DNA of 64,000 bases, from contig CAWCYI010000006.1 in assembly GCA_963799845.1 (NCBI GenBank), positions 1,312,001 through 1,376,000 on the forward strand. Direction: 5' to 3'. The stretch's first letter is position 1. The number at the start of each line of letters is the position of its first letter. The notes under the pieces are model-generated. The model searched no databases. It was not told where the DNA came from and saw nothing but the letters and a program-made list of their open reading frames with translations. Origin of the DNA: an uncultured Nitrososphaerota archaeon. GTDB lineage: Archaea; Thermoproteota; Nitrososphaeria; Nitrososphaerales; CADDZS01. Positions 11,575 to 40,199 of the stretch are shown here, piece after piece. The position numbers were made by a program, and so were the translations under genes.

Positions 11575-12069
11575 TCAAGTTTTTCCTAACCTCTTCTTTA
11601 ATAGTGGCATAATTCCTCCAGCTTCAAGAACATTGAGCATCACTGATGAGAGAGGCTTACTTTCCGATTGTTGACCGCTACTTAGGTTCTTGATAGTCCC
11701 CGTTGCAGGATCGATCTCGCCCTGATCTCCGTCATTGAAAAGTTTAGCAACTTCGGGGCAAATCACGATAGGTAGTCCTATCGCAATGCAGTTTCTAAAA
11801 AATATCCGTCCGGTGGACTCGGCAAGGATTCCACTAATCCCAAGCGCCTTAATGTTCTCAGGAGCAATTTCTCTGCTCGATCCGCATCCAAAATTTCTTC
11901 CCGCGACGATTAGATCGCCCGGTCTAACATTTTCAGGAAACTCAGGTCGAACTGATTTTAAGCAATACTTTTTGAATTCATTCGTAGGGAGTCCAACATA
12001 TATCCCAGGTGCCATCGCGTCAGTATCGATATTGTCTCCGAATTTCCATACTCTGCCACTAATTTGCAC
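11575..12069 (-). CDS. LeuD/HacB/DmdB-type hydratase small subunit
   Basis: GRVWKFGDNIDTD, GRNFGCGSSRE, RIFFRNCIAIG. Confidence 0.92.
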   Translation of the reverse strand: MQISGRVWKFGDNIDTDAMAPGIYVGLPTNEFKKYCLKSVRPEFPENVRPGDLIVAGRNFGCGSSREIAPENIKALGISGILAESTGRIFFRNCIAIGLPIVICPEVAKLFNDGDQGEIDPATGTIKNLSSGQQSESKPLSSVMLNVLEAGGIMPLLKKRLGKT

Positions 12070-13336
12070 GAAGGTACTCCCTCGGATCTGTGATTCTCCC
12101 TCTTATTGATGAAGCAGCAACGGTTGCAGGAGAAGCAAGGTATACTTCAGCCTCAGGACTTCCCATCCTGCCCTTGAAGTTCCTGTTTGAAGACGAGATG
12201 CATTTTTCTCCGGGTGCCAATACACCGTTGCAGCCACCCATGCACGGACCGCAAGATGAGTTGGTGACTACTGCACCGCTTTCGACAAAGATTTTGAGAA
12301 GCCCTTCGTCCATAGCTTTTAGATAAACATCCCATGAAGCGGGCGTAACGATCAAGCGAGTGCTTGAAGAGACTTTGTGGCCTTTCAATACTCTGGCAGC
12401 CGCCTCCAGATCCTCGTATCTTGCATTTGCACACGAACCAATGAAGGCTTGATCTACTGGGGTTCCTTGCAGCTCAGAAACGGGTTTTGAGTTGGCCAGT
12501 GAATGGGGCGCAGCTACGTACGGCTCCAAGTCGGAGACATCAACCGAGAACTTCGAATCGTAAGTTGCATCCTTGTCACTCTTCACGGGCTCAAATCGAT
12601 GGGTGGTTCTAGTGCTCAAATAATCTAGTATTTTGTCGTCAACCTCGAAGAGCCCAAATTTTGCACCTAACTCGATTGACATATTGCTCATAACCATTCT
12701 ACTCGCGAGTGTCATCTCGCCGACGCAAGGACCTCCCCATTCTATTGACTTGTATTGCGCCAACTCTATTCCATACCTCCCCGCGATGTACAAAATCAGG
12801 TCTTTAGAATAGACCGAATCTGGAAACTTTCCGGTGATATGAATCTTCACTGTACTAGGTACGGTAAACCACAACTCGCCAGTGGAGAGCACGTACGCCA
12901 TTTCCGAGTTTCCAATTCCCGCACCCGCAGCATTTAGAGCGCCATAGGTACAAGTGTGCGAGTCCGCTCCCAGAATCAAGCTTCCAGGAAGGACGTGACC
13001 CTTTTCCGTCAAAACTTGATGACAAATGCCAGCGTTAATATCGTAAAAGTGCCTGATTCCGTATCTTTCTGCCAATTTCCGCAGTATAGCGTGATAGTTT
13101 GCGGTAGTAACAGTGGGTGCAGCGGACCAATGGTCCAAAACCACGACGACTTTTTCAGGATCCCAGACTGATGGCAGGCCTTCGGGTAGTCCCTCTTTGA
13201 TAAGGGTTTGATGCATCATTGCAAAACCTTCGTGAATCATGACCAGGTCCACTTTGGCGGTCAAATGATCCCCTGGAGAAACATGTTTTTCTCCCGAAGC
13301 CCGCGCGAGAATTTTCTCGGCAATCGTCATGCTCAT
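12059..13336 (-). CDS. LeuC/HacA/DmdA-type [4Fe-4S] hydratase large subunit
   Basis: MTIAEKIL, DH, GICHQV, GADSHTCTYG, FIGSCAN, CGPCMG, SSNRNFKGRMG, YLASP. Confidence 0.93.
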   Translation of the reverse strand: MSMTIAEKILARASGEKHVSPGDHLTAKVDLVMIHEGFAMMHQTLIKEGLPEGLPSVWDPEKVVVVLDHWSAAPTVTTANYHAILRKLAERYGIRHFYDINAGICHQVLTEKGHVLPGSLILGADSHTCTYGALNAAGAGIGNSEMAYVLSTGELWFTVPSTVKIHITGKFPDSVYSKDLILYIAGRYGIELAQYKSIEWGGPCVGEMTLASRMVMSNMSIELGAKFGLFEVDDKILDYLSTRTTHRFEPVKSDKDATYDSKFSVDVSDLEPYVAAPHSLANSKPVSELQGTPVDQAFIGSCANARYEDLEAAARVLKGHKVSSSTRLIVTPASWDVYLKAMDEGLLKIFVESGAVVTNSSCGPCMGGCNGVLAPGEKCISSSNRNFKGRMGSPEAEVYLASPATVAASSIRGRITDPREYLRAN

Positions 13337-14637: not shown

Positions 14638-15993
14638 ATGTCAAGCCAAACGGAAACCGTGGCCTCATTTGTTGCCAGCCTTGATTACAAAAATATTCCA
14701 ACGAATATCGTGAATAATCTAAAGGCATCCATACTGGACACCCTTGGCAGTGGTATTTACGGATCCACGCTATCCTGGGTTAGATCTTTTTCAGATCTGG
14801 TCATGAATTGGAAAGGAAATGGTGAGGCAAGCGTCTGGGGGCGAGGTAGGAAATTACCTTCAATGAATGCTGCTTTCATAAACGGAACAATGGCCCATGC
14901 ATTCGAGCTAGACGATGCTCATAGAAATAGTGTAACTCATCCAGGCACAGTCGTTATTCCGGCCGTTCTCGCTATGGCAGAGTTGAAGGGAAATGTCGAT
15001 GGAAAAACATTCCTTACGGCGGTAACAGCCGGTTACGAAGTTATGTGCAGGGTAGGAATAGCTTTGGGTGTTTCTCACAGGCTTCGAGGATTTCATCCAA
15101 CTGGGACTTGTGGCGTATTCGGAAGCGCTTCTGGAGCCGCGAAAATCCTAGGATTAGACGAAGAAAGAACAATTTGTGCTTTATCGATAGCCGGCACGGA
15201 GGCATCTGGTCTATACAACCCTTCACTGGTAAAGAGATTGAATGCTGGAAGGGCGGCACAGACAGGAATCATGGCGGCACTGCTGGCTCAGTCGGGTCTT
15301 AGTGGCACGAAAGATGTCTTGGAAGCACCGCACGGAGGATTTTGCAGGGGTTTTTCTGACAACCCCGACATCGGGAGGCTGGTAACCGATTTAGGAAAGT
15401 CATTCGAGGCAGGCAACGTGTCACTGAAACCATATTCGTGTGATGCAGGAAATTGTAGAACTATAGACGCGGTAAAAAAGGCGATCGAGGGGCACGAAAT
15501 CGCTCCAGAATCAATAGAAAAAATTGTAGTCAAAACAAGCACTCAAAACAAAGAATTCAGCTATGGCTTCAAAGTAGACAGCGTTTCTTCGGCAATGATG
15601 AGTCTGCCTTATTGCGTTGCAGTTTTTCTCATTGAGAAGAATGCCTTTCTTGACCAATTCACTGAGAAGAAAATCCGCGATTCGAATATACTTAGTCTCT
15701 CTAAGAGGGTAGAGGTAATGGCGGATCCGGAAATTGACCGTCAAATGATGTCAGACCCAACTCGCCCAGTGAACGTTCATGTCGAAATTAAGTTGACTGA
15801 TGGAAAAAGTTTCAGCAGTAGTGTAATGCATTCCAAGGGAAGCCCGATGAACCCGATGTCCCCTCGAGAAATCAGAGACAAATTTACGAAACTGGCATCG
15901 TACGTCCTCGACAAAAACAAGATAGAGTTCATTATTTCGACTGTAGAAGACCTCGAAGAACTTAGTTGTGTTGACCAAATCGTTCCAGAATGA
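14638..15993 (+). CDS. MmgE/PrpD family protein
   Basis: NGTMAHAFELDDAH, HPG, GYEV, GFHPT, KRLNAG, KPYSC, KGSPMNPMS. Confidence 0.92.
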   Translation: MSSQTETVASFVASLDYKNIPTNIVNNLKASILDTLGSGIYGSTLSWVRSFSDLVMNWKGNGEASVWGRGRKLPSMNAAFINGTMAHAFELDDAHRNSVTHPGTVVIPAVLAMAELKGNVDGKTFLTAVTAGYEVMCRVGIALGVSHRLRGFHPTGTCGVFGSASGAAKILGLDEERTICALSIAGTEASGLYNPSLVKRLNAGRAAQTGIMAALLAQSGLSGTKDVLEAPHGGFCRGFSDNPDIGRLVTDLGKSFEAGNVSLKPYSCDAGNCRTIDAVKKAIEGHEIAPESIEKIVVKTSTQNKEFSYGFKVDSVSSAMMSLPYCVAVFLIEKNAFLDQFTEKKIRDSNILSLSKRVEVMADPEIDRQMMSDPTRPVNVHVEIKLTDGKSFSSSVMHSKGSPMNPMSPREIRDKFTKLASYVLDKNKIEFIISTVEDLEELSCVDQIVPE

Positions 15994-16028: not shown

Positions 16029-17410
16029 TCAGTTTTTTTCGATAATCAGTTCAGTAATATCAGTGATTCTTTCAATAGATTCAAGATGATTTATCAATTT
16101 CAAAATCTCTTCGCTTTGCATACCGGTAGTGTTTTCTTGAAACTTTGATGTCAGTTCATTCGTACTTAGCGGATTGTTGGGACCCCCGATAGCCTGATCC
16201 ACCCTCGAGCTTACTGAATTCCCGTCTCGAAAGGTTATTGATACCTCAGCTGGAGAATATGGGATTCCATCCATTTGTCGATCCGCTTCAACATGAATCG
16301 TTTTTGCCAGTTCAAGTACTGGCCTTCTTCGGATTGCAGAATCAGAAAAACTCTGAATCGACATATTGCCATCGATCAAGATTGTCGAGATGCAGAAGTA
16401 AAGACTCTGTTGGGCTTCAAGGGGTGTCAATGGATTCATTCTCTGCTCCTCTGGATCGGCTACGTCCTTGAAAGTTAGACTCGGAACATGAACGGACATA
16501 GTCTCCACCATATCAGGTTCGAAATCGTATTTCCTACGTAGCTCGAGGACCGCATCGATTGAGGCATGACACCCCCGACAACATGGATATTTTTTGAAAA
16601 TAGTGTCCAGAATGGCGTAACTTTCAGCCAGCCCGTTAGTTATTATCGTGTCGTCATAATGATCGGAAAAGCTCGTAAAAATCCATCGCGACCCTCGAAA
16701 ATAGTTCTCGGTCCAGAAAGACCCCTCGCTGCTAGTTGAGCTGAAGAGATACCATCATGAGCAGCTTTTCCCGGATGTAGTCGTTTGACTGGGGACCCAT
16801 CAGCTAAGAATTCTTGAATCCCTGATGCATGACTTCCGGCTAGCCCCAGAGCATCAGCAATTTGTTCACTATCAAGACCCATAATCACAGACGCTGCAGC
16901 AGCAGCGCCAAATGGACCACATGTAGATGTAGGGTGGAAGCCACGAAAGACGTGACTACGATAAGGCTGGGGATTAACCGCCCGCGAGACACGGATCATC
17001 ACTTCATAACCAGCTACGATTGCAACAATCAAATCTCTGCCATTTGCTTGCGAGGCTTCCGCGGTGGCAATAGCGGATGGAACAATTACAGCTCCAGGAT
17101 GAAGCATTGATCTTTCGGCGTCATCATATTCCCAAGCGTGAGCAAAAGAACCATTCGCATAGGCGGCATTTTGTGGCAAAGTTTTGAAATCATTCTTATA
17201 AATAGAAGATTGCTCGGTACCGCCTAACGATCTAACATAATCTGCGATGATTTTACTCCAAGGGGCCTCTGCTCCCGCGATTGCCACGCCTATAGTGTCC
17301 ATTAAACAAAGTTTGGCTTGTTTTATTATCGGAGCTGGCAGTTTATCGTACTGGAGATCGGTAACAAATTCAGCGAGTTTCATTGAAGAGGATTTCATCG
17401 CTTGGCTCAC
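16029..17410 (-). CDS. Second MmgE/PrpD family protein, frameshift near 16660
   Basis: HAWEYDD, HPG, GFHPT, KRLHPG, then KKYPCC..HASID and GGPNNPLS in the next frame. Confidence 0.85.
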
Positions 17411-17544: not shown

Positions 17545-18042
17545 TCAAATAATATTTTTTTCCTGCAAACGTGAAATAAGTAGTGGAACTATGCCACCTT
17601 GATCCAACATTCGAACTAGATCAGGGGGAAGCGGCTTTGTGGATAGAGTTTTTCCAGTAGTCAGGTTCCTAATTTTACCAGTAGATATTTCAGCTTCTAT
17701 TGTGTCACCTTCATTGAATATTGAAGTCACACCCTTGCAAGGTACAGCGGGCAACCCAATTGCCATGCAGTTTCTGAAATAAATTCTGGCGATTGAATCT
17801 GCGAAAATTGCCCTAATGCCAAGCTCCTTAAGAAAGCTGCAGGCCTGCTCTCTCTGAGAACCACAGCCAAAGTTGGTGCCCGCAACTATTACATCGTTCT
17901 CCCTGACTTCTTGATAGAAATTTGGCCTTATAGCACCGAATAATGCTTTCTTGAGGTCTTTATCGGCCGTCTCAATGGGTGCAATAACGGTCGTGTCGAT
18001 ATTGTCACCGAACTTCAGAACTCTGCCCACTATTGTGCCCAA
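17545..18042 (-). CDS. LeuD/HacB-type small subunit (copy 2)
   Basis: GDNIDT, NFGCGSQRE, RIYFRN. Confidence 0.9.
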   Translation of the reverse strand: MGTIVGRVLKFGDNIDTTVIAPIETADKDLKKALFGAIRPNFYQEVRENDVIVAGTNFGCGSQREQACSFLKELGIRAIFADSIARIYFRNCMAIGLPAVPCKGVTSIFNEGDTIEAEISTGKIRNLTTGKTLSTKPLPPDLVRMLDQGGIVPLLISRLQEKNII

Positions 18043-19309
18043 TTACACCACATCCCTTGGATCCGTTATGACACCACGTAATGCAGAGGCAGCAACAGTT
18101 GCAGGTGAGGCTAGGTATATCTTAGCATCATAGCTACCCATTCTTCCCTTGAAATTTCTTGGTGTTGCAGCAATGCATACTTCTCCTTTAGCCAACGCGC
18201 CCGCGCTCCCTATGCATACCCCGCACCCAGGATTAGTGATAATAGCTCCAGATTTCGCAAGTTTGTAGATCAAGCCCGCGGCGAGAGCTTTCTCATAAAC
18301 TTCCGCTGATGCAGAACCGACGATGAATCTTGTTCCAGGATGTACTCTCTTTCCTTCTACTATTTGCGCAGCAATTTCCAAATCTTCAAAGCGACCGTTG
18401 GTGCAAGATCCGATTACGGCCTGATCTATAGGTACCCCTTTTATTTCAGAAATTGGTTTTACATTACCGACGGTATCTGGACAAGCTACCTGCGGTTCGA
18501 TTCCCGAAACGTCTATATCGTATTCCTCTTCGAATACTGCGCCAGAATCTGAACGCACAGGGGTAATAGGTTTTTGAACTCTTGATCTCAGAAAATCATT
18601 GGTCTTTTCATCCGCCTCGAAGAGTCCGAATTTGGCTCCAAGCTCGACAGACATATTGCTCATCGTCATTCTACTGTCAATACTCAGGCTTGTAGCAAGG
18701 GGTCCGTCCCATTCGATTGATTTGTATTGCGCCACCTCGGTACCAAATGAACCAGCAATGTGAAGCATGATATCCTTAGCGTAAACAAATGGGGAAAGCG
18801 TTCCGTTGAGCATGAACCTTATAGTTTCGGGTACTCTGAACCAAAGTTCTCCTGTTCCGAGGACGTATGCCATCTCGGTGGCTCCTATTCCCGTCCCCGC
18901 TGCGTTGAAAGCGCCATAGGTGGTAGAATGAGAATCTTTGCCAACTATCAATTGTCCAGGGGTTACATGGCCTTTCTCAGGAAGGACTTGATGGGAGATT
19001 CCTGCATCAATATCGTAAAAGTAGGTTAATCCATATTTCTTGGCTAGTTCTCGATTATTGCGATACCTTTCAGCTGCGGCTACGGAAATGGTGGGACTAC
19101 GATGATCGAGTACCACTATCACTTTGTCTTTATCCCATACGCTTGTTAGTCCCTGCTTATACCCCGCGCTGACCAGAACGTCGCTGGGCTCGTTCAAAAC
19201 CTCTGGGACCATTGCCAGATCTATCTTCAGCTGTTACGATGTCGCCAGCTTCTGCAGTCTCTTTACCCGAGCATCGCGCGAGGATTTTTTCGGCAATCGT
19301 CATTTCCAT
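18043..19309 (-). CDS. LeuC/HacA-type large subunit (copy 2), N-terminal frameshift
   Basis: MEMTIAEKILAR from 19309 in another frame; DH, GKDSHSTTYG, IGSCTNGR, CGVCIG, RNFKGRMG. Confidence 0.88.
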
Positions 19310-21932: not shown

Positions 21933-22955
21933 TTAGGTTAGGATTGGTGATCTCGGATCCCCGATCGAATTCTCTAGAGTCTCCCAAAAAAAGCAGGCAG
22001 CGAGATGGTCAACGCCTTCCAATTGGGGCTCGGATTCACGGCACTTTTCTCTAGCATACGGACATCTAGTATTGAATCGACATCCTTTTGGAGGATTTGA
22101 TGCTGAAGGAATTTCCCCCTTAAGTGTCACGGGTACCCGAGTCTTCATCAAATCGTAGTCGGGTACTGGGATCGAAGAAATTAAGACTCTAGTATATGGA
22201 TGACGGGGATGACTAAAGATTTCTGCAGCAGGACCAATTTCCATTATCTTCCCAAGATAAATCACTGCAACTAAATGACTGATGTGCTGTACGACCCCCA
22301 AATCATGAGACACGAAGAGATATGTTAGATTCATTTCATCTCTTAGTTTTATCAGCAAATTGATTATTTTTGCTTGGACCGACACATCAAGCGCCGAGAC
22401 AGCCTCATCGGCTACGATGAAATCTGGAGAAAGAGACAAAGCTCGAGCGAGTGCTATTCGTTGTCTTTGACCCCCACTGAACTGGTGTGGATATTTGTTG
22501 GAGTCTGAGCTACTCAAACCAACTTTCTCTAAAAGACGATAAACCATTTCCTTTCTGTACGCCTTGTCTCCCACGTTATAGACATCAAGTGGTTCTGAAA
22601 TTATTCCCTGAGCATTCATTCTAGGATCTAGAGAAGAATAGGGATCTTGAAAGACAACGCCAATTCTCCTTCGGATTCCAGAAGACATGAGGTTACCTCT
22701 GTTCATTCGGGTTATATCAACTCCGTCGAAGAGTACACTGCCAGCGGTTGGATCAGAGAGTTTGAGGATCAAACTAGCAATAGTAGTCTTTCCCGAACCA
22801 CTTTCTCCCACGAGGCTCAGAGTTTTTCCTTTTGGAATTGAAAAGTTAACCCCATCAACGGCTTTCACACTTCCCGCGTTCCGTTTGAAGATGACGCCTT
22901 TTGTAATAGGAAAATACTTTTTGAGCTCTTTCACTTCAACAAGTGGTTGATCCAT
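21933..22955 (-). CDS. Oligopeptide/dipeptide ABC transporter ATPase (OppF/DppF-like)
   Basis: GESGSGKT, FSGGQRQR, DEAVSALD, GCRFNTRC. Confidence 0.95.
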   Translation of the reverse strand: MDQPLVEVKELKKYFPITKGVIFKRNAGSVKAVDGVNFSIPKGKTLSLVGESGSGKTTIASLILKLSDPTAGSVLFDGVDITRMNRGNLMSSGIRRRIGVVFQDPYSSLDPRMNAQGIISEPLDVYNVGDKAYRKEMVYRLLEKVGLSSSDSNKYPHQFSGGQRQRIALARALSLSPDFIVADEAVSALDVSVQAKIINLLIKLRDEMNLTYLFVSHDLGVVQHISHLVAVIYLGKIMEIGPAAEIFSHPRHPYTRVLISSIPVPDYDLMKTRVPVTLKGEIPSASNPPKGCRFNTRCPYAREKCRESEPQLEGVDHLAACFFWETLENSIGDPRSPILT

Positions 22956-23965
22956 TATGTTTTACCCCAAACTTCTTCCTGATACATAAGACAGCTAACA
23001 AAATGATCTGGTTCGACTTCGAGAAGATCCGGCTCAACCTTGGAACAGATCTCTTTCGCATGCGTGCACCTAGGGTGAAAGCGACAACCCGAAGGCGGGG
23101 AGACAAGGTCGGGCACTTCACCGCTTATTTGCCCTAATTCGGATCTACTATCCTCTCCTAGCTTTGGGACTGAATTCAAGAGGGCCTGGGCGTACGGGTG
23201 CAGGGGAGAAGAGAAAAGATCAGCAGTGAGACATTTTTCAACAATCTTGCCCGCATACATCACATTAACTCGATCGCACAGCCATGCGACTATTCCAAGA
23301 TTATGGGTGATGAACAGAACAGCAGTGCCTTTTGTGTCGCGCACAGTTCTAATCAGCTCTAAGATCTGAGCTTGAATGGTTACGTCCAAATTTGTGGTTG
23401 GTTCGTCAGCAATCAATAGGATTGGAGATGTACAAATTGCAAGGGCTATCATGATTCTTTGACGCATGCCTCCACTAAGCTCGAAAGGATATTGATCCAT
23501 CCTGAGTTCGGGATCGGGGATACCAACCGCAGAAAGTAGTTCGATACCCTTTTGTTTTGCCTCCTTCTTGCTCAACTTATCATGAGCCAAGATCGTCTCT
23601 GTTAATTGTTTCCCAACCTTGATAATCGGGTTAAGGGAAGACAATGGGTCTTGAAATATCATACCCACCTTGCTCCCTCTAGATTTCCGCATTTGTTTCT
23701 CCGTTAGCTGAACGAGATCTATGGCCTCGAGAAATATCTTTCCACTTACTATTTTTGCTGGAGGATTTGGAATGAGCTTAAGAATTGAAAGACAGGTAAC
23801 TGATTTTCCGCATCCTGACTCTCCAACTAGTCCGGCTATTTCCCCTTTGGCAATATCAATTGACACTCCATCTACAGCCTTCACAACTCCCCTGGATGTG
23901 AAAAAGTATGTTTTTAGATCTTGAATCGACAAAACGTTCAGTGAGTCTGAGCTTACATCGATCAC
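22955..23965 (-). CDS. Oligopeptide/dipeptide ABC transporter ATPase (OppD/DppD-like)
   Basis: GESGCGKS, LSGGMRQR, DEPTTNLD, GCRFHPRC. Confidence 0.95.
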   Translation of the reverse strand: MIDVSSDSLNVLSIQDLKTYFFTSRGVVKAVDGVSIDIAKGEIAGLVGESGCGKSVTCLSILKLIPNPPAKIVSGKIFLEAIDLVQLTEKQMRKSRGSKVGMIFQDPLSSLNPIIKVGKQLTETILAHDKLSKKEAKQKGIELLSAVGIPDPELRMDQYPFELSGGMRQRIMIALAICTSPILLIADEPTTNLDVTIQAQILELIRTVRDTKGTAVLFITHNLGIVAWLCDRVNVMYAGKIVEKCLTADLFSSPLHPYAQALLNSVPKLGEDSRSELGQISGEVPDLVSPPSGCRFHPRCTHAKEICSKVEPDLLEVEPDHFVSCLMYQEEVWGKT

Positions 23966-23980
23966 TAATCTGTCACAATC

Positions 23981-24832
23981 TCATAATCGCATTCTTGGGT
24001 CAAGCGCGTCCCTCAAACCATCTCCGATGACATTGAAAGCCAAAACTGTCGTTGTTATGGCCAGCCCGGGAAACAAGGCGGACCATGGAGAAAATAGAAA
24101 ATAATCTCTGCCAGTCGCTATCATGTTCCCCCAACTGGGAAAAGGTGCTTGGACACCCAAACCCAAAAAGCTTAATCCTGCTTCTGCAAGTATCGCCCAT
24201 CCAAATCCCAAACTAATCAGGATGATCATAGGTCCCAACGAATTTGGTATCAAGTGGCGAAACAGAATTCTTCTATCGTTAGATCCTATTGCTTTTGCTG
24301 CCTTGACGAAATCGCTAGTTCTAAGGGAGAGGCATTGGCTTCTTACCACCCTCGCAAAATTCGGCCAGTTGACTATTGATAGTGCGATCATCAAGTTCAC
24401 TATGCCATTTCCAAATGCTGCTATAATTGCAATTGCGAGTACAAGCCCCGGGAAAGCAAGAAAAACGTCTGCTACGCGCATTATAGCTGCATCGATTTTT
24501 CCACCATAGTACCCAGCTACTGAGCCAGAAAGTATTCCTACAAAAGATGAGATTGATACGACTATTATTCCAACTTCAAAAGAGATTTTTGCTCCATACA
24601 TTAGTCGGGTTAATGTATCTCGACCCAAGCTATCTGTGCCCATCGGATGGGCAATTGAGGGCCCAGCAAGCGCTGAAGTAGATGGTTGTATAGGATTGTA
24701 AGCGGAAATGTAAGGAGCTGCAAGCGCGATCACTATCAAAAAAACCAAATAACCGAGGGCTACCGAGGCGCCTCGATTGCCCTTTAGGAAAAACCAAATT
24801 GCGTCGATTTTGGTTCCCCCAATTGATTTCAA
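23981..24832 (-). CDS. ABC permease (OppC/DppC-like)
   Basis: HPMGTDSLGRD, EAA loop, EAGLSFLGLG, GDGLRDALDP. Confidence 0.95.
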   Translation of the reverse strand: MKSIGGTKIDAIWFFLKGNRGASVALGYLVFLIVIALAAPYISAYNPIQPSTSALAGPSIAHPMGTDSLGRDTLTRLMYGAKISFEVGIIVVSISSFVGILSGSVAGYYGGKIDAAIMRVADVFLAFPGLVLAIAIIAAFGNGIVNLMIALSIVNWPNFARVVRSQCLSLRTSDFVKAAKAIGSNDRRILFRHLIPNSLGPMIILISLGFGWAILAEAGLSFLGLGVQAPFPSWGNMIATGRDYFLFSPWSALFPGLAITTTVLAFNVIGDGLRDALDPRMRL

Positions 24833-24852
24833 AAGTCGATCTCCTGACTTTG

Positions 24853-25776
24853 TTATGCGTACTGTATGCGAGGATCAATGTAAGAGTAAGCGATGTCAAC
24901 AATCAACGTAACTAGAACGAAGAGCAGAGTCGTAATCAGGATGGTCCCCGTCACGAGGGGATAGTCCAGATTGCTAATAGCCTGATATGTCAAGTACCCT
25001 ATTCCTGGCCATGCGAACACCACCTCGACAAGGTATGCGCCTCCCATGAGGTAACCGAAATATAGCCCGATAAGAGTGAAGATCGGAATGACCGCATTTC
25101 TCAGAGCATGAAATATGACGACGGTTCTTTCATTCAACCCCCTTGCCCTGGCTGATACAATGTAATCTTGTCTTATCACTTCTAACAATGAAGATCTAGT
25201 AAGCCGCGCAATGGAACCTGCTATTGATAGTCCCAAAGTTAGAGCGGGTAGTATAACCTGCCCAGGAGTTCCATAACCCGCGACTGGGACAAGTCTAAGA
25301 TAATAAGCAAAGATCAGAATCAATATGAGTCCGAGCCAATAGTTGGGCATCGACGCCGCAAACAAAGAAGCGATCATAGAAATTCGATCAAAAATCGAAT
25401 TCTGTTTAAGCGCAGCTACGATTCCTGCAACCAATCCGATTGGGATAGCAATCAATAACCCCGCAACAGTTAATATAATTGTTCTTGGGAGCGCTTGACT
25501 GACAAGTGAGAGTACAGATCTTCCAGTAGAAATGCTATTGCCTAAATTTCCGTGAATTAACCTCCATAAGAACAATCCGAATTGAACGGGAAGTGGCTGG
25601 TCAAGACCGAGCTCGTGTTCGTAAGCGGCTATGTCAGCGGTTGTGCCTCCTGTTCTTCCCATCATGACCCTAACAGGGTCACCGGGGGTAAGTTTTAGAA
25701 TAAAAAAAGTTAGAAGGGCGACACCTATTACGACCGGTATCGCTTGAAGTATTCTGCCAACTACATATTTTAGCAA
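24853..25776 (-). CDS. ABC permease (OppB/DppB-like)
   Basis: PGDP, GLDQP, ARARGL, HALRNA, EVVFAWPGIG, DPRI. Confidence 0.95.
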   Translation of the reverse strand: MLKYVVGRILQAIPVVIGVALLTFFILKLTPGDPVRVMMGRTGGTTADIAAYEHELGLDQPLPVQFGLFLWRLIHGNLGNSISTGRSVLSLVSQALPRTIILTVAGLLIAIPIGLVAGIVAALKQNSIFDRISMIASLFAASMPNYWLGLILILIFAYYLRLVPVAGYGTPGQVILPALTLGLSIAGSIARLTRSSLLEVIRQDYIVSARARGLNERTVVIFHALRNAVIPIFTLIGLYFGYLMGGAYLVEVVFAWPGIGYLTYQAISNLDYPLVTGTILITTLLFVLVTLIVDIAYSYIDPRIQYA

Positions 25777-25807
25777 GTCCGGAGCTTAGTCCGAAGTTTT
25801 TCGAATC

Positions 25808-27605
25808 TCAGCTCGGTGTATTGAGCCAGACCTTCGCACCTATCTGCGGGATCCAGATAGCTCCACCTTCGTACCAACTGCTCGGGTGGACGTTATACCC
25901 CACAAGCATTGGTGTGGAGGCATATATGAAGGGTATCCAATAGAGCGGGGCATCTACTGAGATGTTCTGGGCAATCTGTGTTAACTGAGCAACATATGGT
26001 GCGGCAGCGGTGGAGTTACTTTCAGCAATCTCGGCTGCGAGCTGTGCCAGCTGTGAATTGTTGATGTAATTTAGATCCCACGTCTCTCCTGGTGTATAAT
26101 AATCTCTAAACCTTGTATTTGATTCGCTAAACTGGTTTAGAAGGAGATCCCAATGAGTTCCGCCTGGTCCGCCGTATGCCGTATTAATGTAAGATGGAAA
26201 GTTCAATGAAATCAAGTTGGTGTTAATTCCAGCAGCAGCAAGATCGGCCTGCACCGTCTCTGCGACTATCTGATTATTTCCGAGATCAACATAGACAAAT
26301 GGAAGCATTTGGCCGGCGTAATTCGATTTCGCCAGAAACTGCTTTGCCAGGGTAACATTTCCATTGACTGGATAGACCGAGTTCAGGGACGCATTGAACC
26401 AGGGCCAAGCAGGGTTGATGAGCGTCTCAGATATTGTTCCAAAACCCGCGGAAGCACTGATAATAACCTGGGTACGATTAATTGCATAGTTTACGGCATC
26501 TCGCAAGTACTGATTTAACATCGCTCCGCTACCAAAAGTTGTATTTTCATTTCAGCTGCACCATGTAAAGATCATCAGAGGCCTCGACCTTTACTGGAAA
26601 TCCAGCGCTTAGTACGCTAGGTACATCTGATGGCAACGTTACATCAATGAGTTGATACTCCCCTGTCTCGAGACCTAAAACTCTCGCTGACTCGTCCGGA
26701 ACTATTGATACAACGATTTTACTGATGTATGGTTTGCCGCCCCAGTAATTCGGGTTGGCAACGAGGATTTCTTGGTCATTGGGTATCCACGATGTCAGCA
26801 TATATGGCCCTGTCCCGACTGGATGCTGACCGTAGCTAGATCCGTATTTCGCTACAGCTGTAGGTGAAACGGGAGCGCATTCATCTGCAATTAATTGAAG
26901 AAAGTACCCAATCGGTTTAGAAAGGACAATCTGTATTTGGTACGCACTCAACACATTGATTGCGGATACATAGACAAAATCTCCTGCGATATTACTTCCC
27001 GCCGCGCTCTGGTTCGCGCACTGTTCAAAAGTTAGTTGCACTGCGGTCGCATTAAATGGAGTCCCATCTTGAAAAGTGGCGTTTTGAACTAGATTAAACG
27101 TGTATACAGTACCGTTAGGGCTCACCGTCCAGGATTGCGCAAGTTCCGGTTGGATAGTCCCACCAAATCCTTCAACAGTCAGAGTATTATAAATGGCCTT
27201 GTACATGAAGGCCGTCCACTGATCGGATCCCCCGAAAAATCTTGGGTCGAGACCGAAACTTCCGGCTCCTTCTTCATCCATCCCAACGTTGAGCGTACCA
27301 CCCTGAACAACACCAGAAACGTTACCCGTTAGAGTAACAGTCGACGTAGCTGTCGATCCGGATGTAAGTAGTGAGGTGAGAGTTGAAACTGCTGTCGAGA
27401 CAGAAGTTGAAACGGCAGTTGACGTTGAAACAGCAGTAGACACAGAAGTGGATACAGATCCCGATGCGGTGCTCGTGCTTACTACGGTCGTCGTCTTGGC
27501 ACCACCTTCATATACTAAAACTCCAGCCGCCGCAGCGATAATAATTACAATAATCACTACAGCCACACTAATCATTCTTGCGATAGCGCTAGAACCGCGT
27601 TTCAT
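25808..27605 (-). CDS. Family 5 ABC substrate-binding protein, frameshift near 26545
   Basis: N-terminal TM helix plus S/T-rich linker, PELAQSW, FQDGTPFNA, PVGTGPY, NPNYWG; continues LRDAVNYAINR in 25808-26521. Confidence 0.88.
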
Positions 27606-27915
27606 ATGCTGGCTCGAAGACTCAAGTACATACTTAAAGATTATCCCAAAAATTGCTCAGCCACAATCTTCGGGGCCAGGTCTGTTAGGTAGAAATTGAC
27701 GTTCCAAACAGAAATAATGCCTAATATCTTTTGATTTCTCTTCCAGTTAATCATATTTTTTTGCGAGATGTTTTGAATTCAGGGAATTAGCGCGGTAGTC
27801 CGTTCCATCTGATTGAGCGATATGTGATCTAATTCGATACAGACTCATTTCCCTGCGAAAACAATAATTCCAGCCTACAAAAAAGCTGGTACGCGGTCCT
27901 TGTTCGACGCAAGTT

Positions 27916-27933
27916 TGTTCACGCGCGTGACAC
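27916..27933. promoter_or_regulatory. Second copy of the parS-like palindrome (TGTTCACGCGCGTGAcac)
   Basis: First 15 bp identical to 6088-6102; lies in the divergent region between the ABC operon and the LLM operon; flanked by partial half-sites TGTTCGACGC (27901) and TGTCACG (27942). Confidence 0.7.
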
Positions 27934-28173
27934 ATAAACGATGTCACGAATCAAGCTCCACTTTACAGTTTGGTTCCAGTCTTCTAAGGGCTTACTAGTT
28001 CTCTCCTGAAATATTTTTGCTCTTCATGAAAGCTATGGGTGGGAGTTCTCGGCAATCCTTAGTATTAATGAAGAATTGGTTTCATTCTTTCATAACCAAT
28101 AATAAGATACTATGGAGCATATTTAGAGCAACAAAACCTTATAGTTGTTTACTGTCGCGAGATTACGAATCCT

Positions 28174-29235
28174 TTGAATAGCGTTCTATCGAAAGTATCG
28201 CTTTCTATTGGAGGACTGCCTATAGAAGATGATATCGAGATCTGCAAACTTGCAGAATCTTTAGGTTTCAAAGGCTATTGGCTCCATGAGGTTACTGGTA
28301 GAGATGCCTTTACACACATTGCAGTTCTTTCACAACAAACGGTACGTATTAGACTCGGTACAAGTATAGTCGGAATATTTGGTAGGAGTCCACTCGTTAC
28401 TGCAATGAGCTCTTTCTCACTAAACGAAATAAGCAAAGGAAGATTCGTCCTTGGTCTGGGAACGCAAGCGGAAAATTACGTGGTTGGATGGCACGGAGCA
28501 AAGTTTAGGCGCCCGACTATCAGTATGATAGAATACGTCACACTTGTCAAAAGCATTCTGTCAGGAGAGAGGGTTTCCTACGACGGAAAAATATTTCGAA
28601 TGCAAAATTTCAAATTTCAAGCAAAACCAAGCTATGACACAAAGATACTAGTTGCTGCGATCGGACCCAGAATGATTGAGGTTGCTGGCAGAGTCGCCGA
28701 TGGAGTCATTGGAAATTTCTGGTCGGAGGATTATGTGCGGAAGACCGTGATTCCAAACTTGAAGATTGGTGCGCAAGCGTCTGGGAGAAAACTGGAGGAC
28801 CTGCAAATAATTAGCGGCCACGCGTGTTTTCCTACAGACGGATCCTCGGCTCAAGTTGGAACAACTAAACCAGTCGTTGTCACTTTTGCTCTCGTACCTT
28901 ATTATCGAAAGATATTTTCCGATAGTAATTTCGACGATGAATACTCGAAGATTAACAAGGCCATGGCAAAAGGAGACGTGAAGGGCGCTCTGGACGCTGT
29001 AACTGATGAGATGACCAAGGCGCTAACCATAGTTGGGGATCGATCAGAATTCAATAGAAGAATCCAAGGATTGCTCGCAGCGGGAGTCAATGAGGTGAAA
29101 CTCCACCCTGTGACTAGCTATAGTTTTCATCCACTTTATCCTGGCAGCTTGCCCGATAATATTTCAGAATTTAACGGGCCTCAATTGTATTCGCTTTATG
29201 AAACCAGTAAAAAAGTCATTGATGTCTTGTCATGA
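28174..29235 (+). CDS. Luciferase-like (LLM) flavin/F420-dependent oxidoreductase, Mer-like
   Basis: AESLGFKGYWLHE, RIRLGTSI, RSP, SKGRFVLGLG, AAIGPRMIEVAGRVADG. Confidence 0.88.
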   Translation: MNSVLSKVSLSIGGLPIEDDIEICKLAESLGFKGYWLHEVTGRDAFTHIAVLSQQTVRIRLGTSIVGIFGRSPLVTAMSSFSLNEISKGRFVLGLGTQAENYVVGWHGAKFRRPTISMIEYVTLVKSILSGERVSYDGKIFRMQNFKFQAKPSYDTKILVAAIGPRMIEVAGRVADGVIGNFWSEDYVRKTVIPNLKIGAQASGRKLEDLQIISGHACFPTDGSSAQVGTTKPVVVTFALVPYYRKIFSDSNFDDEYSKINKAMAKGDVKGALDAVTDEMTKALTIVGDRSEFNRRIQGLLAAGVNEVKLHPVTSYSFHPLYPGSLPDNISEFNGPQLYSLYETSKKVIDVLS

Positions 29236-29292
29236 GCCTTCTGTCTCCAAAACAGCTCCCTGTTTGACGTACGTTCAATACTCCCCAAATAG

Positions 29293-30187
29293 ATGCCAAA
29301 ATTGTTAAGAAATAATCGGCGATACTTCGCAAATTTCTTCATTTGGGATCGCGCTCCTAATCCTTCAAACTTTGTCATCTTGCAGAGGATTTCAAGACTA
29401 GGATTCGATGGTGTTGAAATTCTTTCTCCTGAAACTCTTCGAGAAACCCAATCTTACATCCAAGCTTTGAAATCAACATCGAAATCATCAAGAAAAAGAG
29501 AGCCACTTGATACAATTATTATCGGAGCGAGTAATTTTGAGGCCGATCCGAGCTCAAGCGCCCTAAACGTACAGCGACGAGCGATAGATCACCTAAAGAA
29601 ATGCGTCGATTTCTCCGCAAAAGTTGAGGGGGACCTAATTGCCGGCCCCGTTCAATCTCCCGTGGGAGAGAATGTGTTCATGACTCACGAAGAAAGAAAG
29701 AGGAGGACGATTAGGGCAGCGGAGACTCTCAAGGTGGTCACTGGTTATGCCAAAGATAGGGGGGTAAAAATCGCATTCGAACCTTTGTGTCGGTACGATC
29801 AGCTCCTTCATAAATACTGTAAACCAAGCGCTCATTCTTTGTGATCTGGTGTCCGAAGAGAACTTTGGCTTGCTCTTGGACACTTTTCACATGAACGTCG
29901 AGGAGGATTCGACCTATTCCGCGATAGTTTCAGCAAAAGGCAAGATTCTTCACGTACACGCCTCGGAAAACAATCGTGGCATCCCAGGAAATGGTCAGAT
30001 AAATTGGTTGCGAATCAAGGAAGCCCTATCGAATACTAGCTATAACGGTGCAATTGGCATCGAGTCCTTCACGCCCCTAGTCAAGACATTCGCTACCCAA
30101 AATCATTCTTGGCGCAGGCTCGCTCGATCACAAGACAAGATCGCGTCAGATGGCTTGAAGTTTCTGAAAAATGAACTCGATTTGTGA
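29293..30187 (+). CDS. Sugar epimerase/isomerase (D-tagatose/psicose 3-epimerase-like TIM barrel), frameshift near 29800
   Basis: GFDGVEI, AFEPLCRY, LLDTFHMNVEE, HVHASENNRGIPG, IESF. Confidence 0.85.
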
Positions 30188-30194
30188 TTTTTGG

Positions 30195-31737
30195 TCAAGC
30201 AATTCCCGAAAGTGCCATTAGGGCGGCGTTTCTGCCTGGAAGACCTGTCACTCCTCCACCCGGATGAGTAGTAGGTCCGAACATGTAAAGTCCCTTAATT
30301 GGAGTCTTGTACTGAGACCACCCCGGGAACGGACGTAAAGCAAGGGATTGATCTAGTGAAACACTTCCACCCGCGGGATCGCCGTTAACAAGATTTGGAT
30401 TCAGAGATTCTATATCCTGCGGCGAGAGTATTACTTCTTTCAAAATAATTTGTTTAGCCTTCGGCGAGTACTCGCACAATCTATCTATGCAGGAACCGGC
30501 AAATCGTTCCTTTTCCTCGACGGTCCAAATTCTACCGTCAAGAAATACCGGCGCTCTTACGAAGTTCCATAGCGTATGTTTTCCGGGAGGCGCCCTCGAT
30601 GGGTCGTAACAGGAGGTGTTGTTTATTGTCATGAATGGTCTTTTGGGCAGACTTACCGTTTACGCATTCGTTGTAAGCTTGCGAGATCTCATCCAACGAT
30701 TCGCCAATCTGAATGACGCCGGATTTTTTAACGTCGTCAGATGCAAAGTCCAACCATTCATTTAGGGCGGCGTGAATCATGACCTCAGTCACTCTCGAAT
30801 ATCTGAAGCGTTTCACTTTTTTCCGAAAATCGTCTCCGATTGCAGATTCAGGAACGAGATTCAAGAATAAGGATTTTGGCTCAACGCCGGCAAGTATACC
30901 TTTTCTTGCGTGAAAAACTCGTCCGTTAGTTGTCTTGACCGATATAGCTTCTCCGTCATTCACCTCAATTGACTGCACTCCATCTCCCAATATGACAGAT
31001 CCTCCGTGACTAAAATAGTACTTCTGCAATGAATTAACGAGGGTCTTTATCCCTCCGATCGGTACTGCAACTCCTCTTTTCTGCAAAAGCCCTGTGAAGA
31101 AGAAGACCGTGAAAGCGCTACGTGCAGCTTCGGGGGAAAGTGGAGCATGGTTAGCGCCCAAGAGGGCTAGAAACGCCTTGACCTCTTCTGACTCGAAGTT
31201 TTCCTCCAGCCAGTCTCTCGCGGACATGTAGGAAAATTGAAGAAAGTCGAGGCCTGTGTCTGATTCCTCCAAAGCAGACATTTGGGAAGAAAAAGGGAGT
31301 GGGGGCGCCTGCATAGAACCAAAATATATTTCTTCGGATTCTTGATAGAAATCAAATATCTCCTTGAATTTTTTGGGGTCTTTTTCAGAAAGATGGGAAA
31401 TGGATTTTAGTGTCAAATTCAAGTCCTTGTAAATCGACATCGAGCTTCCGTGGACAAATGGGGTCGACGCTACTGGATTTGGCTCAATTTCTCGATACCC
31501 GTACTTTTCAAGCTCTAATTCGGATTGGACAGGACTGGCCTTCCAGAAGTTAATCGAAGTTGCCAGCACATCGTGCTTGAATCCTGGCAAGGTAAGTTCC
31601 TCTGTAAAGGCTGCACCACCCAGATAGCTTTTCTTTTCAATTAGTAAACAGGAGCAGCCCTGTTTTGAAACATAGGAAGCGGCAGAGAGACCATTCGTGC
31701 CCCCGCCGATCACTATGAAATCATACGTTGACATCAA
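30195..31737 (-). CDS. Phytoene-desaturase-like FAD oxidoreductase, frameshift near 30645
   Basis: IGGGTNGL, LGGA..EELTLPGFKHD, DPSRAPPGKHT, YKTPIKGLY, THPGGGVTGLPG. Confidence 0.85.
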
Positions 31738-38237: not shown

Positions 38238-40199
38238 TCATCCAGGTTGAATCGTGTTTAGAGCAGGGAGATCGCTCACACCGGTGTCATCAGGTACCAT
38301 CAAGAGTCCAGCCACAGCCGCTTTGCTATAGACCCAAGAACCATCAGTGAAAAGTAGTTTTGGAGCAAACAACCAAGCAAAAGGCGCAGCATTGTAGACC
38401 TGCTGCTGAGCAATCTTAAGTTCAGCTAATGTCGCCGCCGTGTTATTCCCGGATAATAGAGTTAGAGCTGTGTCGGCTGCAGGACTATTATACATCGACC
38501 AGTCTCCAGCAGCAGAAGAATTCGTAACGAATGTTGTCCAGTAATCTGAAGGAGCAAGGTAGTCTGGACAGAAAGCGCTACTACTTCCCAGCAATATATT
38601 GGGAACAATGGAAGGATCCTTTATCAGGGTACCATAGGGAACCGTGAGTATTTGCGAAACGATGTAGCTCCTGGCTTCGACCTGTAACGACACTTTGATT
38701 CCGATCTGAGCGAGGCCTTGTTGAATTATCTCCGCTGCTGGTAGAGCCCAAGTCGTAGATCCGCTGTTGACAACAAGTGGCATTGTTGGAAGACCAGTCC
38801 CGTTTGGAAAGCCAGCAGCTGAAAGATATTGATTAGCTTCTGTAATATTGAAATCATAGGGAGGAAGATTGCCTGGATCATAATATTGGCCATAGTTAGG
38901 CGTCTCAGGCCCCATAACTGGTATCGCCTGACCTGAAACAGCTTGATCAATTATGGCTGTATAATTTATTGCATGTACAATTGCTTGCCTAACATCCGTG
39001 ATATTAGTCGGATAAATCTGAGTGTTGAGACCCATTCTAACTATGCACGCCGGGTAGGGAAGCGAAATATATCCAAACTGTGGGCTCTGCTGTACAGCTT
39101 GAAAATTCGCCCCCTCCACTTGTGCTATTTGCGCTTTCGAGCTTGAAAGGTCGAGGTACTCTGAAGTCGGATTGGGAACTTGGTTCACTACTATAGTCCC
39201 AAATTGTCCTGGTTGAATCAGAGGGTTTTCTGAATCCTCAGTTGTTGTCAAGTTATTACCCCAATATCCAGAGTTTTTCGTGAAGGTAAGAGATGAGTCA
39301 ACAGCGATGTTCGACATAACATATGGGCCAGTTCCTGGGGGAGGATTCGCGTTCAGGTAAGCGTTCGGAGAGACAGGAGTCCCAGGTCCACCATGTTGCA
39401 TAATGTACAACGGATCAAACATCATACTTCCCCAACCGACAAATGAGTTCAGAAAGAATTGGAAAGGCGTGCTCAAATGGAACACTATTCTGTCCGGGCT
39501 AGTGACATACACCGGCCAAGACGAATTGGACATTAAAGCCATTAATTGAGATGAAGGATTTGCCAAGCTAGTGCCGTTCATCAAAGAAAGCGTCGCAGGA
39601 CCAAACTCAACGGCAGATGAGTTAAAAATTGGAAGTGGTACCCAGAAGAATGTTGAATTCGAGGAGGCATAGTAGAAGAGGTAAAAGTCTTCCCAAGCTG
39701 TGTATGCATTGAATGAATCTCCGTTTGAAAACTGAATGCCAGTTCTAATGTTGAAGGTATACGTCTCACCATCGGAGGACACGTTCCAACTAGAGGCTAA
39801 CCCTGGTAAGAATTGAATTTGTCCCGAATACTCTGCTGCTGTCGCATTCATAACAACAAGTGGTTGATAAACTGCATATTCCTGCCAGTAGGGATAGGGA
39901 AACGCTAATGGATCCAGAGAAGGACTCGGCCAAGTCGGATCATCGATAATGAGTGTAGACGGGACAGCAGAAGTTGATGTTGTCGAAGTTGACGTGGACA
40001 GAGAACTTGCTGCGGTGGTAGAAATTGAGCTTGATGCTGTAGTCAAAGTCGAGCTAGTCGCGATTGAAGAGGAAGTAGTAGTAGTTGAACTCGTACTTAG
40101 AGAAACATAGACAGCGGCCGCTGCGATAATGAGAATGACGACAACTATCGCGACAATAATAAGAATAGTTCTGGCAATTGCATTTTTGTTTCTGTCCAT
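38238..40199 (-). CDS. Family 5 ABC substrate-binding protein (archaeal, S/T-rich linker)
   Basis: PGLASSWNVS, FSNGD, GTGPY, VRQAIVHAIN; N-terminal TM helix. Confidence 0.9.
   Translation of the reverse strand: MDRNKNAIARTILIIVAIVVVILIIAAAAVYVSLSTSSTTTTSSSIATSSTLTTASSSISTTAASSLSTSTSTTSTSAVPSTLIIDDPTWPSPSLDPLAFPYPYWQEYAVYQPLVVMNATAAEYSGQIQFLPGLASSWNVSSDGETYTFNIRTGIQFSNGDSFNAYTAWEDFYLFYYASSNSTFFWVPLPIFNSSAVEFGPATLSLMNGTSLANPSSQLMALMSNSSWPVYVTSPDRIVFHLSTPFQFFLNSFVGWGSMMFDPLYIMQHGGPGTPVSPNAYLNANPPPGTGPYVMSNIAVDSSLTFTKNSGYWGNNLTTTEDSENPLIQPGQFGTIVVNQVPNPTSEYLDLSSSKAQIAQVEGANFQAVQQSPQFGYISLPYPACIVRMGLNTQIYPTNITDVRQAIVHAINYTAIIDQAVSGQAIPVMGPETPNYGQYYDPGNLPPYDFNITEANQYLSAAGFPNGTGLPTMPLVVNSGSTTWALPAAEIIQQGLAQIGIKVSLQVEARSYIVSQILTVPYGTLIKDPSIVPNILLGSSSAFCPDYLAPSDYWTTFVTNSSAAGDWSMYNSPAADTALTLLSGNNTAATLAELKIAQQQVYNAAPFAWLFAPKLLFTDGSWVYSKAAVAGLLMVPDDTGVSDLPALNTIQPG

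Follow-up and report, generated by a model that had tools for sequence, protein, structure and literature searches.

The stretch of DNA analysed here (the window) comprises 64,000 nucleotides of contig CAWCYI010000006.1 from the genome assembly GCA_963799845.1 of an uncultured Nitrososphaerota archaeon. It contains a gene for a protein that joins the ParB_N and HTH_ParB domains to a C-terminal SnoaL_3/NTF2-like domain (hereafter ParB-NTF2), and the neighbours of this gene are an aminotransferase IV gene and a mandelate racemase/muconate lactonizing (MR_MLE) gene. The ParB-NTF2 and MR_MLE genes are divergent, with a palindrome (site 1) between them, and an imperfect copy of it (site 2) lies 21.8 kb away, between an Opp/Dpp-type ATP-binding cassette (ABC) uptake operon and a divergent monooxygenase operon (Table 1). 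Between the two sites, Pfam recognises two M24/creatinase-like peptidases, two pairs of aconitase-family large and small subunits, an isocitrate/isopropylmalate-type dehydrogenase, two MmgE/PrpD genes, UbiD and an isochorismatase. The coordinates agree with the original prediction that the two sites bracket this catabolic block of 6–28 kb. Here we weigh whether the palindrome belongs to the ParB-NTF2 family and whether site 2 serves as an operator of the single ParB-NTF2 protein.

Table 1. Positions of the features discussed, counted from the first nucleotide of the window
Feature	Position	Strand	Basis and remarks
ParB_N + HTH_ParB + SnoaL_3/NTF2-like protein gene (P0001, 374 aa)	4923–6047	−	Pfam
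TATA-like A/T-rich element of the ParB-NTF2 promoter	6071–6081	−	by eye; ~29 nt ahead of ATG
Site 1	6088–6105	none	perfect 18-bp palindrome TGTTCACGCGCGTGAACA
MR_MLE gene (enolase superfamily)	6245–7393	+	Pfam; divergent from ParB-NTF2 across site 1
Remainder of Opp/Dpp-type ABC operon: two BPD_transp_1 permeases, two ABC_tran/oligo_HPY ATPases	21933–25776	−	Pfam
SBP_bac_5 substrate-binding protein, first gene of the ABC operon	25808–27605	−	Pfam; 613 codons without base 26553
Half-site-like string TGTTCGACGC	27901–27910	+	read in the sequence
Site 2	27916–27933	none	TGTTCACGCGCGTGACAC, imperfect copy of the site 1 palindrome
Half-site-like string TGTCACG	27942–27948	+	read in the sequence
Luciferase-like monooxygenase	28174–29235	+	Pfam; divergent from the ABC operon across site 2
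Xylose-isomerase-like TIM barrel (sugar-phosphate isomerase/epimerase-like)	29293–30187	+	Pfam; 297 codons without base 29800

The string TGTTCACGCGCGTGA occurs at 27916–27930 and 6088–6102, and the palindromy of site 1 places it on the minus strand at 6091–6105 as well. Site 2 agrees with site 1 at 15 of 18 positions and at 13 of the 14 positions of the family core, or at 20 of 21 when one inserted C is allowed. Local alignment of the flanks yields 16 contiguous identical bases (the preceding T counted) and four more past the inserted C (TTGTTCACGCGCGTGA[C]ACAT), and the identity is thus longer than the 15 bp originally reported. No similarity was found beyond this 20/21 match in the alignment of the two flanks. 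A repeat or mobile element around the two sites was ruled out because the flanks are dissimilar. With up to two mismatches, TGTTCACGCGCGTGA has three matches in the window, compared with a mean of 0.08 in shuffled sequences, and none of 100 shuffles reached three. The genome that was searched comprises 4,603,561 bases in nine contigs and is 86.7% complete. Across it, the 18-mer with up to three substitutions, or with up to three errors including insertions and deletions, occurs at two places only, namely sites 1 and 2; the motif is therefore not the dispersed genomic repeat that the original prediction had considered as a possible refutation. The 14-bp family core TTCACGCGCGTGAA with at most one mismatch is likewise confined to sites 1 and 2 genome-wide, and the reversed control gives no match. 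Looser genomic matches (the 18-mer with four mismatches or the 14-mer with two) stay at the control level: a genome-wide search for weaker sites of a larger regulon, using the 14-mer at two mismatches, returned nine matches versus ten in the control.

A repeated 15-mer would be unremarkable in itself, as 6% of 15-mers have another copy somewhere in the genome (mostly as true repeats) and 0.3% have one within 32 kb; the weight comes from the match to a pre-specified palindrome at the promoter of a ParB-like gene. Of the 14-bp core, site 2 retains the GCGC centre and the whole left arm. The extra half-site-like strings that had been noted on either side of it are present, at 27901–27910 and 27942–27948. 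The latter string pairs with CGTGACA at 27926–27932 to form an everted 7-bp repeat with a 9-nt gap, a geometry unlike that of the family site.

Several other strings were encountered in these searches (positions outside the window are given as contig and coordinate). The candidate TTCACGGTCGTGAA at C6:1442605 lies inside a 339-aa open reading frame (ORF) and was taken as chance. The exact pattern TTCAC-N4-GTGAA has six matches genome-wide, near the ~4.4 expected by chance; two other intergenic matches, at C6:113719 and C8:15761, have the centres CTTT and ACCG. Two unrelated 18-mers, GTTTCACACACGTGAGCA and TGTTGATGAGCGTGAAAG, occupy four genomic places each (C1:2364, C4:886881, C4:956921 and C6:81998; and C4:1959084, C6:237772, C6:782071 and C6:1061294) and probably belong to dispersed repeats or insertion sequences.

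The attribution of the palindrome is best examined across the homologues of the protein. About 44 database proteins (P0002–P0045) share its architecture, with 38–46% identity over the best local alignment; the named homologues come from Thaumarchaeota metagenome bins, and the records of the relatives read Nitrososphaerales archaeon. Among 61 genomes of the order, the present one included, 15 carry a match at E 1e-20 or better. With the present genome excluded, such matches occur in 10 of 12 genomes of family f1, in all four of family f13 and in none of the 44 genomes of 18 other families, and some relatives have up to six of them. Homologue loci were taken from relatives' genomes, genome contigs and metagenome contigs: 55 were N-terminally anchored, nine duplicates were dropped and 46 unique loci were retained. 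The unpublished genome G001 contributes one site-less locus (L012) and three pattern matches, and no claim depends on it.

In a palindrome scan, many of these loci showed GC-centred inverted repeats 25–115 nt ahead of the aligned start. The 44 loci from other genomes (279,940 bases) contain 18 exact copies of TTCAC-N4-GTGAA, compared with 0.27 expected, and all 18 lie outside long ORFs, save for overlaps with over-extended gene starts. The loci were then sorted by three residues of the recognition helix, which reads VSQH in the protein of the window. In the xQH class (24 loci, 182,104 bases), TTCAC-N4-GTGAA was found in 19 loci; four of the five xLH loci carry TTTAC-N4-GTAAA, and five of the 14 xN. 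loci carry TATGC-N4-GCATA. No site was found in the three loci with other helices. Sites of another class are absent from the xLH, xN. and remaining loci, and the sole cross-class hit, a TATGC site in the xQH locus L062, comes from a locus that also holds an xN. paralogue. Against the xQH-class core, site 1 matches at 14 of 14 positions and site 2 at 13 of 14. Because the sites persist at ~40% protein identity and the arm changes with the helix, the palindrome class is well supported, with high probability, as the cognate site of the ParB-NTF2 family. Footprinting and covariation thus bear out the proposal that the palindrome is a site of this family. The arms look like what we take to be canonical parS half-sites with four extra bases between them. 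Paralogues within a single genome have different 4-bp centres and different bases at the sixth arm position, a difference that suggests insulation between them.

The placement of the site in relatives is varied. Twelve of the 18 sites lie within 130 nt upstream of the gene, adjoining the TATA-like element in family f1 and between that element and the start in family f13. The site of L071 lies ~270–310 bp from both starts in a 592-bp divergent region. Three sites are located just downstream of the gene. Two of these, a 22-bp perfect palindrome in L059 (G011:C64, 11006–11027) and the site of L060 (G010:C224, at about 2136), belong to two species of one sister genus; they stand between convergent stops and hence cannot be promoter operators. 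The third, in L026, lies 60 nt before the next gene. Two others are more remote: the site of L067 is 5 kb from the gene, between a major facilitator superfamily gene and a cupin gene that precedes ABC ATPases, and that of L058 is 5.7 kb away beside an MR_MLE gene. Such free placement is unlike a classical operator and more like a loading site, and it is the principal indirect reason to consider long-range action.

The genes around the homologues also bear on site 2. Among 76 immediate neighbours, SBP_bac_5 substrate-binding proteins are the commonest (9/76), followed by class-III aminotransferases, short-chain dehydrogenases and MR_MLE proteins (four each) and by UbiD and luciferase-like monooxygenases (two each). 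When the proteins of the window were searched against the 44 loci with tblastn, the substrate-binding protein was found in eight, ABC ATPases in five, the luciferase-like monooxygenase in five and MR_MLE in four. Eight or nine substrate-binding proteins in 280 kb, compared with one per 118 kb in the present genome, correspond to a roughly three-fold enrichment, assuming that this density also holds for the relatives. Two loci, L079 and L082, have the family site directly between a divergent substrate-binding protein gene and the ParB-NTF2 gene. A site ahead of an ABC operon with its substrate-binding protein fits the commonest neighbourhood of the family.

The protein itself is matched by ParB_N (PF02195; 45.5 bits, cut-off 26.3) over residues 24–99 and by HTH_ParB (PF17762; 37.1 bits, cut-off 22.6) over residues 108–202, and its C-terminal 130 residues match both SnoaL_3 (PF13474; 43.3 bits, cut-off 22) and CaMKII_AD (PF08332; 42.7 bits, cut-off 22.1). 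The family profile recovers Caulobacter crescentus ParB (6t1f) at E 7e-29 in an alignment that spans the helix-turn-helix (HTH), and Noc and KorB are also matched. Residues G56, R59, A63, E90, N91 and R94 are invariant among 29 aligned family members and R58 is kept in at least 90% of them; the invariant residues align with nucleotide-pocket residues of C. crescentus ParB, Noc and KorB. The motifs of this pocket are a GERRxRA-type box and ENxxR (PMC10786196), and both are found in the ParB-NTF2 protein. An AlphaFold2 model with a mean predicted local distance difference test score (pLDDT) of 83 comprises a confident ParB-like N-terminal half, a short basic linker of low confidence (residues 201–209) and an alpha+beta cone at the C-terminus. 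Within the NTF2 domain (210–340), most blocks have pLDDT values of 84–93, with a dip to 53–75 at 251–280 and 301–310. Foldseek connects the first part (residues 1–200) with Noc (7nfu, 7ng0), ParB and KorB (8qa8), and the second part with CaMKII hub domains at TM-scores, normalised to the target, of 0.74–0.82.

A two-copy model of residues 205–350 reached an ipSAE of 0.74, compared with 0.01 for the best of three controls, with at least 97% of contacts common to the runs and a partner pLDDT of at least 77. Of 30 proteins solved as pairs, 20 reach this mark, as does one of 23 solved as single chains. The predicted interface includes the invariant residues R314, H330, H332 and S334. The result supports dimerisation through the NTF2 domain, although it may mirror likeness to known structures because NTF2 and hub dimers have already been solved.

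Several hallmarks of ParABS systems were sought. The canonical ParB C-terminal dimerisation domain (PF23552) has no hit in the protein or in its 44 close homologues (P0002–P0045), where SnoaL_3 takes its place, and is found only in the distant hits P0047–P0053. A search that covered the locus found no ParA-type gene adjoining the ParB-NTF2 gene. The ParA-binding peptide is characterised by an LGxGL-type motif (PMC10786196). The protein begins at the ParB_N fold, and no N-terminal extension or motif of this type was visible on reading its sequence. Since the ParB domains and motifs are present and the canonical C-terminal domain and ParA linkage are missing, the protein appears to be built like the ParB/KorB type without being a member of ParABS. 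It is the sole full-length copy in the genome. Five more ParB_N-like paralogues of 304–480 aa (L004–L008, at C6:1288712, C6:1212495, C6:1725946, C4:253611 and C4:1534914) match the N-terminal half only and probably lack the NTF2 domain.

At its own gene, site 1 lies 41–58 bp upstream of the ATG and ends 6 nt from the TATA-like element, on the upstream side of that element. Judged by the general architecture of archaeal promoters, the position of the element implies a leaderless or short-leader ParB-NTF2 mRNA.

Pfam agrees that site 2 is intergenic between divergent ABC-uptake and monooxygenase/epimerase-like operons, as originally described. The region spans 568 bp (27606–28173), an unusually long intergenic stretch for a compact archaeal genome, and the site lies 311 bp from the ATG of the substrate-binding protein and 241 bp from the TTG of the monooxygenase, where the original estimate was ~250–300 bp. 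TATA-like A/T-rich elements at 27630–27639 and 28139–28144, each ~30 nt ahead of a start codon, were placed by eye according to general archaeal promoter architecture. The distance from site 2 to the inferred core promoters would accordingly be ~290 bp on the ABC side and ~217 bp on the monooxygenase/isomerase side. In the same region, positions 28017–28181 hold a 54-codon ORF (51 codons from the ATG at 28027), with an A/T-rich element ~22 nt upstream, that ends 8 nt into the monooxygenase ORF.

The accuracy of the sequence was checked over 25500–30300 with publicly available short-read contigs, which came from four runs within a single soil study; the run behind contig X1 may be the source sample. 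Contigs X1 (26904–28983) and X4 (27786–27936) agree fully with site 2, and an assembly error was ruled out as the source of its extra C because both carry the C. One assembly base is absent from the short-read contigs at 26553 (X1) and another at 29800 (X1 and X3). Without them, the split substrate-binding protein gene becomes a single frame of 613 codons and the split isomerase-like gene one of 297 codons; the gene splits are assembly indels, and both operons beside site 2 look intact. The split aminotransferase IV gene (3883–4206/4203–4826) and the split MmgE/PrpD gene (16029–16511/16643–17410) may also reflect single-base insertions. Rfam gave no match over 27000–28800 at E values up to 1, and folding of the DNA at site 2 gave a z-score of −0.37, that is, no structure. 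A decayed ParB-like gene at site 2 was rejected as well, as tblastn of 57 family proteins against 27501–28300 returned only noise (best E ~0.1 in a tiny database).

Within the catabolic block, duplicated aconitase pairs (11575–13336 and 17545–19212) and duplicated MmgE/PrpD genes (14638–15993 and 16029–17410) stand next to the isopropylmalate/isocitrate-type dehydrogenase. This combination suggests that the encoded pathway handles a branched or substituted organic acid. A 487-aa ORF (7547–9010) downstream of the MR_MLE gene matches no Pfam family at E values up to 0.001. Across the 4.6-Mb genome, SBP_bac_5 has 42 matches (~39 genes), or about one per 118 kb, including C4:1783731, C4:1273566 and C6:1350673 (38673–39812 of the window). 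Such a set of peptide/opine-type ABC uptake systems is very large for a Nitrososphaerales archaeon and points to heterotrophy.

Taken together, these results are consistent with site 2 being a functional, weaker and promoter-distal operator of the single ParB-NTF2 protein, by a logic resembling that of KorB; we regard this as an even call. In such a scheme, the protein would recognise the TTCAC-N4-GTGAA core as a dimer, with one HTH per arm, and the C-terminal NTF2/hub-like domain would join the two subunits where the canonical ParB dimerisation domain normally stands. Site 1 would be bound strongly, at the gene's own core promoter and the divergent enolase-superfamily operon, most likely for autoregulation. 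Site 2, where 13 of the 14 core positions match and the outer part of the right arm is shifted by one base, would be bound less well. Having loaded there, the protein would reach the ABC and monooxygenase core promoters through sliding gated by cytidine triphosphate (CTP) or through lateral spreading; since site 2 lies more than 200 bp from the inferred core promoters, an effect on these operons would need spreading, sliding or bridging. The pocket motifs and the free placement of the sites would fit a KorB model, and so would the preserved succession of N-terminal gate, HTH, linker and C-terminal dimer. Occupancy of site 2 in the cell, either sign of regulation, CTP dependence, sliding and any ligand of the NTF2 pocket are inferred, and the proposed loading, spreading or looping draws on the conserved CTP-pocket motifs and on the analogy with KorB.

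A number of observations weigh against this reading of site 2. Its right arm is disturbed, with GTGAC-AC in place of GTGAA-CA, and a ParB-type dimer might for that reason bind it poorly or not close on it. Weaker sites are not in excess in the window (29 matches versus 34.5 expected), and several divergent promoters within the catabolic block have no site. The term regulon used in the original prediction is therefore generous: there are two sites only, weaker sites are not in excess, and the internal divergent promoters of the block are site-less. Conservation of the layout, which had been proposed as a check, was not found either. A second copy of the own 18-mer at up to three errors occurs in none of the 18 loci (1.7–21 kb each, few of which reach 20 kb), and a search of seven relatives' genomes with the own 14-mer at up to one mismatch recovered the known site in each and gave no intergenic second site. 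The extra hits in those genomes are confined to G024, G038 and G057 and all fall within ORFs, one being an exact 16-mer within an ABC ATPase ORF (G057:C16), so that the two-site layout appears to be a peculiarity of the present genome rather than a family trait. A genome with six paralogues (G006) does contain eight TTCAC-N4-GTGAA matches versus two in the control, some of them away from the paralogues, on short contigs. As the closest homologue is just 46% identical, site 2 itself lies beyond the reach of footprinting. In addition, kin share both protein and site, so that the covariation counts overstate independence, and all TATA positions were read by eye.

An alternative view is that site 2 is a relic or neutral near-copy without present function, left, for example, by an ancestral layout in which the regulator stood beside the ABC operon. 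We consider this unlikely, while giving it real weight. The one-base insertion in the right arm, the gap of over 200 bp to both inferred core promoters and the failure to find a second site in the relatives searched would all be expected of a relic; in L079 and L082, moreover, the regulator and the substrate-binding protein are directly divergent, so that a rearrangement could have parted such a pair here. However, 16 + 4 identical bases without flanking similarity are unlikely to last without selection, unless the split was recent. The stretch 27501–28300 holds no remnant of a ParB-like gene, and site 2 is unique in the genome and stands ahead of the neighbour type that the family favours. 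A functional site might instead serve in another way: sites 1 and 2 could be pairing anchors at which NTF2 hub-like oligomers or ParB-type bridging loop out the 21.8-kb block between them. The bracketing of the catabolic block, the resemblance of the C-terminal domain to ring-forming CaMKII hub domains (with the target-normalised TM-scores of 0.74–0.82 given above) and its predicted self-association are in keeping with such a loop. Yet the modelling covers a dimer only, paired sites occur in no relative searched, and most family members have a single site, so that pairing cannot be the general mode; we judge a loop distinctly improbable.

Two further alternatives concern the palindrome as a whole. 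GC-centred palindromes are typical of many dimeric regulators, and the palindrome could in principle be the operator of a different, unlinked transcription factor that only happens to lie near the ParB-NTF2 gene. The covariation of the site arm with the ParB-NTF2 recognition helix in three classes is difficult to reconcile with this, as are the matching-class site in 19 of 24 xQH loci and the position of 12 of the 18 non-own sites at most 130 nt upstream of the gene. Furthermore, no classical regulator was found among the Pfam-scanned ORFs of the 6–28 kb block, and a foreign factor is in our estimation very unlikely. A role as centromere-like parS sites in DNA segregation, for which the ParB-like fold, inverted repeats of about parS length (PMC10786196) and the family sites located downstream of the gene in convergent-gene gaps might be invoked, seems scarcely probable at all. 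No ParA-type gene adjoins, no N-terminal extension or LGxGL-type motif is visible, relatives carry up to six matches per genome, each with its own site, and chromosomal ParABS is generally absent in archaea according to the text of a recent survey (PMC12704722).

For the preferred reading of site 2 as a distal operator, the nearest known system is KorB of plasmid RK2, a ParB_N and HTH protein that serves transcription control and not segregation alone, a use proposed here for ParB-NTF2. The operators of KorB (OB) are described as falling into proximal ones, 4–10 bp from a promoter, and distal ones, whose distance ranges from 45 to >1,000 bp; with CTP bound, the clamp can slide as far as 1.5 kb (PMC11790492). 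In the present genome, two short palindromes, as candidate operators, also lie one near to and one far from a promoter. The CTP-pocket motifs are conserved in ParB-NTF2, and KorB (8qa8) is among both the sequence and the fold matches. The differences are nevertheless considerable. KorB belongs to a bacterial plasmid, whereas ParB-NTF2 is encoded on an archaeal chromosome and would act on TBP/TFB-type promoters; its C-terminus is NTF2/hub-like instead of a KorB/ParB dimerisation domain; and there are only two sites here, site 1 proximal and site 2 distal and imperfect. KorB also has a clamp-locking partner of the KorA/TrbA type, whereas no small DNA-binding gene was noticed beside sites 1 or 2, where no partner search was made.

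ParB/Spo0J with parS and Noc provide the best sequence and structure matches over residues 1–200 and share the GxRR and ENxxR motifs, and the family site approximately matches parS in length and is likewise a short inverted repeat (PMC10786196). By contrast, the arms of the ParB-NTF2 site are parted by a 4-bp centre; the protein has no adjoining ParA, ParA-binding peptide or canonical C-terminal domain; and its neighbours are uptake and catabolic genes, with several paralogues and distinct sites in some relatives. VirB of Shigella (PMC10770331) and BisD of ICEclc (PMC12409273) are, as described in those papers, also ParB-fold, CTP-dependent regulators that exert long-range effects from specific sites, but these bacterial proteins are part of virulence plasmids or mobile elements and work as activators or antisilencers. 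SnoaL_3 and CaMKII hub proteins resemble the C-terminal half in domain matches, cone fold and predicted self-association; ParB-NTF2 differs in fusing this domain to a DNA-binding ParB module.

HTH-bearing ParB-fold proteins are scattered in archaea according to the main text of a 2025 survey (PMC12704722). A ParB-HTH-NTF2/SnoaL fusion is not described in that text, whose supplements may list it, nor in the full-text literature searched, which includes few subscription journals. Judging from the cited papers on KorB, VirB and BisD (PMC11790492, PMC10770331, PMC12409273), the transcription-regulating ParB-fold CTP switches reported so far are bacterial and belong to plasmids and mobile elements. 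A family with a readable helix-to-site code in an archaeal setting is the more valuable result, and the second site is a modest point beside it.

Extending the argument, we tentatively propose, as a possibility that we hold to be doubtful, that the ParB_N-HTH-NTF2 proteins of these Nitrososphaerales might be the first archaeal CTP-switch regulators. They would be one-component and metabolic. Each would load as a clamp at its private parS-like palindrome, with specificity determined by a single helix residue, and would slide or bridge to uptake and catabolic operons on TBP/TFB promoters, with the NTF2 domain providing the dimer or a higher oligomer and possibly sensing a ligand. The two sites in the window would then provide the first natural example of a single protein of this kind acting at two loci 21.8 kb apart.

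The analysis thus adds a lineage-restricted archaeal family, a readable protein-to-DNA specificity code, and a perfect and an imperfect candidate site in one genome. It opens to test CTP-gated DNA clamps on archaeal promoters and a hub-like domain that replaces the C-terminal domain of ParB. It likewise opens to test the control of many peptide-type uptake systems, represented here by the 42 SBP_bac_5 matches, in heterotrophic relatives of ammonia oxidisers.

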